A stretch of DNA of 64,000 nucleotides from an uncultured Poribacteria bacterium (lineage in GTDB: Bacteria > Poribacteria > WGA-4E > WGA-3G), in NCBI GenBank assembly GCA_951813565.1, contig OX638351.1, positions 128,001-192,000 of the forward strand, written 5' to 3'. The translations under genes and the position numbers were made by a program. The notes under the pieces are model-generated. The model ran no database searches and was not told where the DNA came from. It was given only the letters and a program-made list of their open reading frames with translations. Of this stretch, positions 5,310 through 5,645 are shown piece by piece; the stretch's first letter is position 1, and each line of letters opens with the position of its first letter.

Positions 5310-5645
5310 TTATGCCAGGGTTGAAAGCTCCTCCAACAGATGGGAAACATTGGAGTACGTTCCAATGCAACAACAAAAGCCCGCAACGAGACACTCCATG
5401 CAAGACGAAGCGAGTGTGCGGGCGCGAAGATAAAATAGATTTAATTTCTGTGATACTGCTTTGTGATGTGAGAAATTAACGAACGTGAAATGGGGGGGGG
5501 GGGGGGGGGGGGGGGGGGGGGGGGGTAACTTGCAGTTAAAAACTGTTAAAACACCAAATATTCCGCGTGGGCAAATTCTGCTTGAGAAACATGTATCTGC
5601 CATGATCGTTTTCTGGATTGCGGTATTGATATGTCGGTACTTCAT
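5310..5645 (-). promoter_or_regulatory. Putative leader ORF with Pro11 encoded by a C34 tract, overlapping a terminator-like hairpin
   Basis: G34 at 5492-5525; hairpin GCCCGCA/TGCGGGC (5379-5423) followed by TTTTGTTGTT on minus strand. Confidence 0.45.
5492..5525. repeat. 34-bp G/C homopolymer
   Basis: Direct count; exact length may be unreliable in an assembly. Confidence 0.9.

Follow-up and report, generated by a model that had tools for sequence, protein, structure and literature searches.

A candidate leader-frame attenuation switch built on a length-variable poly-C tract upstream of predicted exported-protein genes in an uncultured Poribacteria sponge symbiont

Homopolymer or repeat spacers upstream of surface-related genes act as switches through promoter spacing in Bordetella fim and in Neisseria porA/opc and nadA, and the variable G-repeat of the H. 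pylori RepG-tlpB system acts by sRNA pairing. In Salmonella, the short leader ORFs of mgtL and mgtM-mgtP, which contain proline codons, couple translation to termination, and these leaders sense a signal through fixed codons. Attenuation by Rho that depends on an upstream ORF, as well as phase variation based on Rho, has been described (PMC12360218). The closest described system is that of the S. gallolyticus pil1 and pil3 loci, where leader-peptide phase variation is combined with attenuation (Danne et al. 2014, PMC3894217). In pil1, leader stops at least 28 nt before the terminator give a low profile, and stops immediately upstream of it give a high one (PMC3894217).

Here we analyse a leader found in a 64,000-nt stretch of Poribacteria DNA (the window). 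The leader seems to work like the pil1/pil3 attenuator, its architecture and variation matching those described there (PMC3894217). We propose, with a probability of roughly 70%, that the reading frame of a leader, itself likely translated, follows from the length of a variable poly-C tract, which would in this way control the readthrough of a predicted terminator, so that the predicted exported-protein genes behind it would be switched randomly. This chain from tract length through leader frame to readthrough of a predicted terminator was the core of the original prediction; the family analysis given below supports it, and pil1 is a direct published precedent, which the original prediction did not name. 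The literature searched, largely open literature, contained no paper on this leader element in Poribacteria.

The leader locus and its tract

The features of the leader, by position in the window, are as follows.

5809..5836, minus strand: weak sigma70-like site TTGAAT-16-TAAAAT (9/12) from the promoter scan, the sole candidate promoter for the leader
5654..5659, minus strand: purine stretch AAGGGT, where the family has a GGGG/GGAG Shine-Dalgarno-like motif
5310..5645, minus strand: leader ORF from the ORF list, with ATG at 5645, 111 aa including Pro11, open across the hairpin
5526..5538, minus strand: conserved inverted-repeat box TAACT-GCA-AGTTA immediately before the tract, holding stops in unused frames
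5492..5525, minus strand: poly-C tract of variable length, C34 in the present assembly (G34 on the plus strand)
5476..5489, minus strand: conserved motif TTCACRTTCGTTAA, ending with the early stop TAA (5478-5476), 52 nt ahead of the stem
5441..5443, minus strand: stop reached with 3n Cs, 17 nt ahead of the stem, peculiar to the window copy
5431..5455, minus strand: decayed copy of the family hairpin H1 (TATCGCAG/CTGCGATA), not formed in the window copy
5379..5423, minus strand: hairpin H2, predicted intrinsic terminator stem GCCCGCA/TGCGGGC with inner ACACTC/GAGTGT, -20.2 kcal/mol
5369..5378, minus strand: U-rich tail TTTTGTTGTT, interrupted
5347..5368, minus strand: hairpin H3 (GCATTGGA/TCCAATGT) straight after the tail

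The sequence bears out what had been noted for this locus: a C34 tract, a 111-codon leader with eleven prolines, a hairpin, and stops of the other frames at 5476-5478 and 5441-5443. The repeat unit is not a multiple of three, and C34 is in frame 40 codons after the ATG, giving a leader of 111 aa; with C11 the leader would have 48 aa. When the tract length was varied in silico, C8, C11, C32 and C35 led to the stop at 5478-5476, C33 and C36 to the one at 5443-5441, and C34 to the one at 5312-5310. Both other frames had been expected to stop before the hairpin and indeed do so, but the stop of the 3n frame lies just 17 nt from the stem and need not mean OFF. For this copy, 3n+1 Cs are predicted to give a high state and 3n+2 a low one, and the 3n state is uncertain under the pil1 rule on the distance from stop to terminator. 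The decayed H1 and this 17-nt stop make the window copy atypical in its family.

Runs of G or C become rarer with length in the 5.43-Mb genome, with 1756, 194, 20 and 5 runs of length 5, 6, 7 and 8 and just three longer ones (11, 19 and 34). All eight C-runs of at least 8 fall within copies of the leader element.

Lengths at the window locus were inferred from gap counts in the DNA-type Logan contigs of four runs, and such contigs drop rare variants. The X2 contig has 402 letters over 425 window bases and is otherwise identical, which implies 11 Cs provided that the tract accounts for every gap; its flank to the left of the tract is 29 letters long, below the 31-letter bar. The X4 contig, from another strain, has 794 letters over 820 window bases, implying 8 Cs, and both shorter alleles correspond to the early-stop frame. 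The X1 and X3 contigs end at the tract, so no length is readable from them, and the length of 34 was seen in the present assembly alone. A metagenome locus (L090) with 99.5% identity over 1407 nt to a paralogue in the present genome has C8 against C7. The window locus has orthologues in two further genomes, one with C6 in the early-stop frame and one with C9 in the readthrough frame. Repeat number therefore differs between strains or samples at the window locus, in the L090 pair and among the orthologues. The runs that match the window include sponge metagenomes, and the RNA runs X9, X13 and X18 gave small shares (0.05-0.16). Depth drops to the right of the tract in X2 and X3, contig depth being not readable as expression.

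A sequencing or assembly artefact, such as two-colour poly-G, had been named as a threat to the original prediction. That length 34 is confined to one assembly and that two contigs are interrupted at the tract would both agree with such an artefact. Tract length differs between samples, however, which argues against it, and the tract stands inside contigs with unique sequence on either side. It also recurs in 11 paralogues, on both strands, and the tract-plus-motif pattern is present in 30 of the 176 genomes of the phylum, mostly in the present genus (22 of 40, including the present genome), with 0 in the backward control. The artefact is refuted as far as the existence of the tract is concerned, and we regard its chance of explaining the tract as negligible. 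Slippage during replication would change the tract length. A MutS gene is present in the genome, and short tracts (C5-C8) may therefore slip rarely.

A family of leaders and its reading frame

A search of the genome and its relatives, as the original prediction had suggested, uncovered 11 paralogous leaders in the present genome (G000), nine from an HMM search and two more from the list of C-runs, together with homologues in other Poribacteria. A pattern consisting only of the 3' arm of the hairpin and the tail matched 50 loci among 185,579 genomes, 47 of them titled Candidatus Poribacteria and three "uncultured bacterium"; C6 or more lies upstream in 33 of the 50, with a mode of C10 (3-4 Pro). 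The 11 own leaders and 40 from elsewhere were aligned, leaving out the 7 of 50 loci that have no C-run of at least 4, L069 (tail match only), and L048 and L073 (contig ends).

ATG, GTG or TTG stands at one aligned column in 45 of these 51 leaders, mostly after GGGG or GGAG, and ATN in four more. The frame set by this column is open to the tract in 42 of 51 leaders, against 0 and 1 in the other frames and 3.4 (maximum 10) in shuffles; without the stop-rich last 27 nt, the open leaders by frame are 45, 0 and 6. Kin are not independent, so that such family counts overstate significance. One copy in the present genome (G000:C1:1559305) has ATC at the leader start where L091, 96.8% identical to it, has ATG, and two further G000 copies have ATT or ATA; all three copies stay open.

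In 17 disjoint leader pairs, mismatches are spread evenly over the codon positions (90/92/82). The 16 pairs that aligned well show gaps of 3, 3, 6 and 3, the remaining pair being misaligned (gaps 10, 1, 1, 9, 1, 3 and 14). From these alignments, leader translation looks kept and the peptide sequence looks free of selection. The lengths from start to box form one class of 82, 91, 100, 103, 106, 109 and 115 and another of 96, 99 and 102, a partly circular result, as only open leaders were counted. The tract has 6 or fewer Cs in 8 of the 9 leaders with a broken frame, at least two of which (L053, L059) are truncated or misaligned, and 7 or more in 25 of the 31 intact ones.

In each of the 42 open leaders, one frame meets a stop no more than 20 nt from the tract and another passes the hairpin; 31 show an early/through/through pattern. 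In the default frame, the early-stop TAA lies 10-16 nt behind the tract. The resting frame outside the present genome is the early-stop frame in 24 of 31 leaders, against 12.3 expected (kin not being independent); the G000 copies comprise four early, one mid and six through. The default of the family is the early stop, not the readthrough state of C34.

In genome G007, three leaders (L124, L125, L126) have the same start and carry (ACTCG)n, with 24, 5 and 10 units, in place of box and C-run. All three rest in early-stop frames, the 5 units and early stop of L125 being taken from its printed sequence and translation. Readthrough was computed for two changes, one unit less from (ACTCG)24 and one more on (ACTCG)10. 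L049, a relative of these leaders, has a decayed repeat and reads through. The replacement of poly-C by a pentamer indicates that what matters is the frame, not polyproline and EF-P, a G-quadruplex or a fixed DNA spacing. Sensing of Pro-tRNA or EF-P supply and formation of a G-quadruplex had also been put forward; neither survives as a core feature, since the modal tract is only C10 and the homologous pentamer leaders are free of the proline run and do without the C-run. An mgtL/mgtP-type proline-sensing leader was rejected on similar grounds, with tracts ranging from C4 to C34 where conserved Pro codons would be at fixed places. An EF-P gene is present in the genome, a general trait, and the ribosome could lose its coupling over eleven prolines, which would weaken the C34 state.

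The C-run could alternatively serve as a DNA spacer, setting the distance from a regulator box (TTAAC-N5-GTTAA) to a promoter or to a second box (TTCACA...GTTAA). A conserved inverted-repeat box does lie directly before the tract, with a similar motif after it, and the distances from box to TAA cluster strongly at 41 nt (14 of 30), which is what a DNA spacer would produce and runs counter to our main model. The distance nevertheless tracks the phase of the leader (38, 41, 44, 47 and 53 against 39, 42 and 54 in early-stop copies), a box is missing from the (ACTCG)n leaders, which span 25-120 nt, and a terminator-like hairpin would sit downstream of the promoter concerned. Such a spacer would also leave the conserved start, Shine-Dalgarno (SD) motif and open frame unexplained, and we consider it quite improbable. 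A homopolymer switch acting on promoter spacing was accordingly set aside, spacing not being fixed independently of frame; the 41-nt mode remains.

The hairpins were folded in the window copy and across the family. The window fold is only slightly better than shuffles for the 86-nt region alone (z -1.24), and z is -2.8 over 130 nt; H2 was not called as a terminator by a simple promoter/terminator consensus scan of the window. In the family regions, all 50 minimum-energy folds use GCGGG as the 3' arm of H2, and 40 of the 50 regions have z below -2. In a three-helix structure, 88.4% of cells are paired and 47 double changes occur against 14.8 in shuffles, the helices having been counted on a structure set from one row, which favours that structure. 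Covariation is found in 6 of 8 pairs of H1 and 2 of 8 pairs of H3; the base of H2, whose 3' arm is fixed by the search pattern, varies only from G-C to G-U. RNAalifold on the 50-row alignment yielded the H2 base and a pairing of the H1 3' arm with the tail only, without double changes, a small yield owing to varying loop lengths. The window tail, U4-G-UU-G-UU, is weak for an intrinsic terminator. H2 and its tail are predicted from these folds to act as a premature terminator.

Downstream genes and the second promoter-like site

Behind the hairpins lie a second promoter-like site and four genes.

5262..5290, minus strand: second sigma70-like promoter candidate TTGAAA-17-TATAAT (11/12), enclosing the SD of gene 1 (5275-5271)
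5039..5260, minus strand: gene 1, 73 aa, one hydrophobic stretch, Cys/Pro-rich tail; 7 unnamed homologues including itself
4226..5026, minus strand: gene 2, 266 aa, N-terminal membrane anchor; matches in 30 of 40 genomes of the genus
3453..4175, minus strand: gene 3, 240 aa, N-terminal membrane anchor, weak TPR_21 match below cut-off
2195..3439, minus strand: gene 4, 414 aa, signal-peptide-like N-terminus, Ser/Thr linkers, duplicated Cys-rich C-terminal repeat

An SD and an N-terminal hydrophobic stretch were found in all four genes, in line with the predicted operon of exported proteins. Pfam gave no match over cut-off for any of the four, gene 4 having no family match, and the language-model features of Atlas gave leads only, TPR-like for gene 2 (0.90) and one for gene 4 (0.77). 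In gene 4 (region 3150-3439; C-terminal part, 2195-2560), the Ser/Thr linker and Cys-rich repeat are duplicated, with YGCDYNAEYDYCTDTG...CGHRWCCCAP occurring twice. The rpsL-rpsG-fusA operon (window 1-1539) follows directly downstream on the same strand, 655 nt apart.

Across the family, 38 of 47 copies have a first downstream gene whose product is hydrophobic at its N-terminus; among genome ORFs the share is 794 of 2367 (34%). These first genes belong to many unrelated families, and the figure of 38 of 47 is rough, since the gene finder missed gene 1 of the window and called no gene at several loci. Six targets in the present genome were scanned, of which one is 3-keto-disaccharide-hydrolase-like with a lectin fold, one is a methyltransferase and four had no match. 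The methyltransferase case is L036 (G000:C1:3024718), where the cassette stands ahead of a SAM methyltransferase gene and not of an exported protein. Since orthologous operons without the leader exist (L095, L096), the cassette seems to come and go as a unit. In L095 (G012), the gene 1 orthologue is preceded by an ORF whose end, judging by eye, resembles the C-terminal region of an ECF-type sigma factor; small membrane proteins of the gene 1 type may be regulatory. In L064 and L079 the first called ORF behind the terminator appears by eye to be transposase-like, and insertion sequences may therefore land between cassette and target.

The promoter scan of the window found 5 sites against 5.1 expected in shuffles, which is chance level, and a stricter scan found none before the leader in the window copy. 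With this stricter scan, a sigma70-like site precedes the leader in 23 of 56 family members, against a background of 9.7%. Upstream in the window, 5860-6460 is dense in palindromic repeats dispersed genome-wide, with dozens of exact matches of 29-31 nt and a 20-bp stem at 6301-6348.

Behind the hairpin arm, at a distance of 45-210 nt, 32 of 57 copies also carry a sigma70-like site, against a background of 9%; a transcript from the one in the window would start inside gene 1. Among the 28 copies with both such a site and a called gene, SD and start lie inside the promoter in 10, the window included, so that its RNA would miss them. The other 18 were folded, start sites being assumed: the short RNA buries the SD and the long one frees it in nine, the reverse holds in three, and six show no change. 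In 19 of 28 copies, the SD would thus be exposed in the long RNA but absent from the short one (10) or buried in it (9), a pattern that fits readthrough being ON for the first gene. The downstream site could nonetheless express genes without the leader, so the gate may not cover all four genes of the window. The original prediction had the tract switching the operon; a predicted frame gate stands ahead of the genes, but the site at 5290-5262 may bypass it. In L031 (2890-2975), L032, L038, L066 and L067, a GGAGACG/CGTCTCC inverted repeat lies over the -10 box of the downstream site. In the short RNA, the 3' arm of this repeat forms an anti-SD for the first gene; the long RNA masks the arm.

The promoter-like sites before the leader and after the terminator, as well as the operons that lack a leader, would also suit an independent small gene, encoding a phase-variable peptide or a small RNA with its own terminator, with neighbours using their own promoter. 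We find this very improbable: the peptide appears to be under no selection, one copy in the present genome has a shifted peptide and is still open, and the cassette is always co-oriented ahead of genes, mostly of predicted exported proteins. A small RNA finds no Rfam family either, the scan over 5310-5645 returning no match up to E 5 except for a chance-level edge overlap (5222-5313).

The proposed switch and known systems

For the events at the RNA level we infer the following model. Transcription would begin at a promoter upstream of the leader, and the leader would be translated. In the default frame, the ribosome would leave at the early TAA, H2 would fold and RNA polymerase would terminate on the U tail, giving the low state. 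After a one-base slip, a coupled ribosome would cover H2 and transcription would go on, giving the high state. The second promoter-like site behind the terminator would probably give a short RNA unable to translate gene 1, in which case gene 1 would depend on readthrough fully and genes 2-4 only partly.

The same frame switch could have the opposite output if the early stop allows Rho onto the C-rich RNA, or if polymerases reading through the downstream genes' own promoter silence these genes, the early stop then being ON and readthrough OFF. In favour, the genome encodes Rho, the tract is rich in C and contains no G, the U tail is interrupted, 32 of 57 copies have a promoter-like site behind the terminator, and most leaders rest on the early stop. 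We hold this reversal to be unlikely, as the (ACTCG)n leaders are not C-rich and G-poor, the first gene in 19 of 28 copies looks translatable from the long RNA only, which favours readthrough as ON, and just ~50 nt separate the early stop from the stem. About 50 nt is short for Rho loading.

Compared with mgtL/mgtP, the number of prolines in the Poribacteria leaders ranges from 1 to 11, is forced by the C-run in any frame, and falls away in the pentamer variant. With the spacer switches and RepG-tlpB, the Poribacteria leaders share a variable repeat upstream of surface-related genes (here predicted exported-protein genes), but the conserved property here is the reading frame. As in the Rho-dependent E. 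coli fim and C. difficile flg switches, a stochastic DNA change in a leader would control premature termination; those systems use DNA inversion by a recombinase, whereas the Poribacteria leaders would use repeat slippage and leader frame (PMC12360218).

The likeness to pil1/pil3 is closer. As described by Danne et al. (PMC3894217), the repeat lies within a translated leader (here likely translated), the default pil1 frame stops before a stem-loop terminator (39 bp in pil1, 52 nt before the predicted terminator here), a change out of frame lengthens the peptide so that it reaches or passes the hairpin, with the early/through/through pattern shared, and the targets are surface proteins (predicted exported here). 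The G007 repeat is even a pentamer as in pil1, ACTCG against GCAGA. The Poribacteria repeat differs in being mostly a mononucleotide C-run, and no sequence relation is expected. Where pil1/pil3 are two pilus loci, the cassette is dispersed over 11 places in the genome, each ahead of unrelated genes; it has three hairpins and a nested second promoter-like site, and its host is an uncultured sponge symbiont.

New relative to pil1/pil3 are thus the mononucleotide tract, the dispersed multi-copy cassette, the exchangeable repeat and the second promoter-like site behind the terminator. One could go further and see a portable contingency cassette, in which an exchangeable slippage device, a terminator and a nested decoy-like promoter serve ~11 unrelated exported-protein loci as a combinatorial surface repertoire, the first dispersed family of leader-frame attenuators; we advance this extension tentatively. 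If it is true, ~11 loci per genome would give a sponge symbiont up to some 2000 surface states. The cassette also singles out proteins with which an abundant uncultured sponge symbiont seems to vary its surface. Comparing tract length in raw reads with RNA depth across the hairpin would be a simple read-out of phase variation in a natural holobiont. Leader-frame attenuation escapes scans for repeats in genes or promoters, and in the literature searched the pil1 mechanism occurs at two pilus loci in a single streptococcus. An unrelated second case that has spread through a genus as a cassette would show it to be a general design of phase variation.
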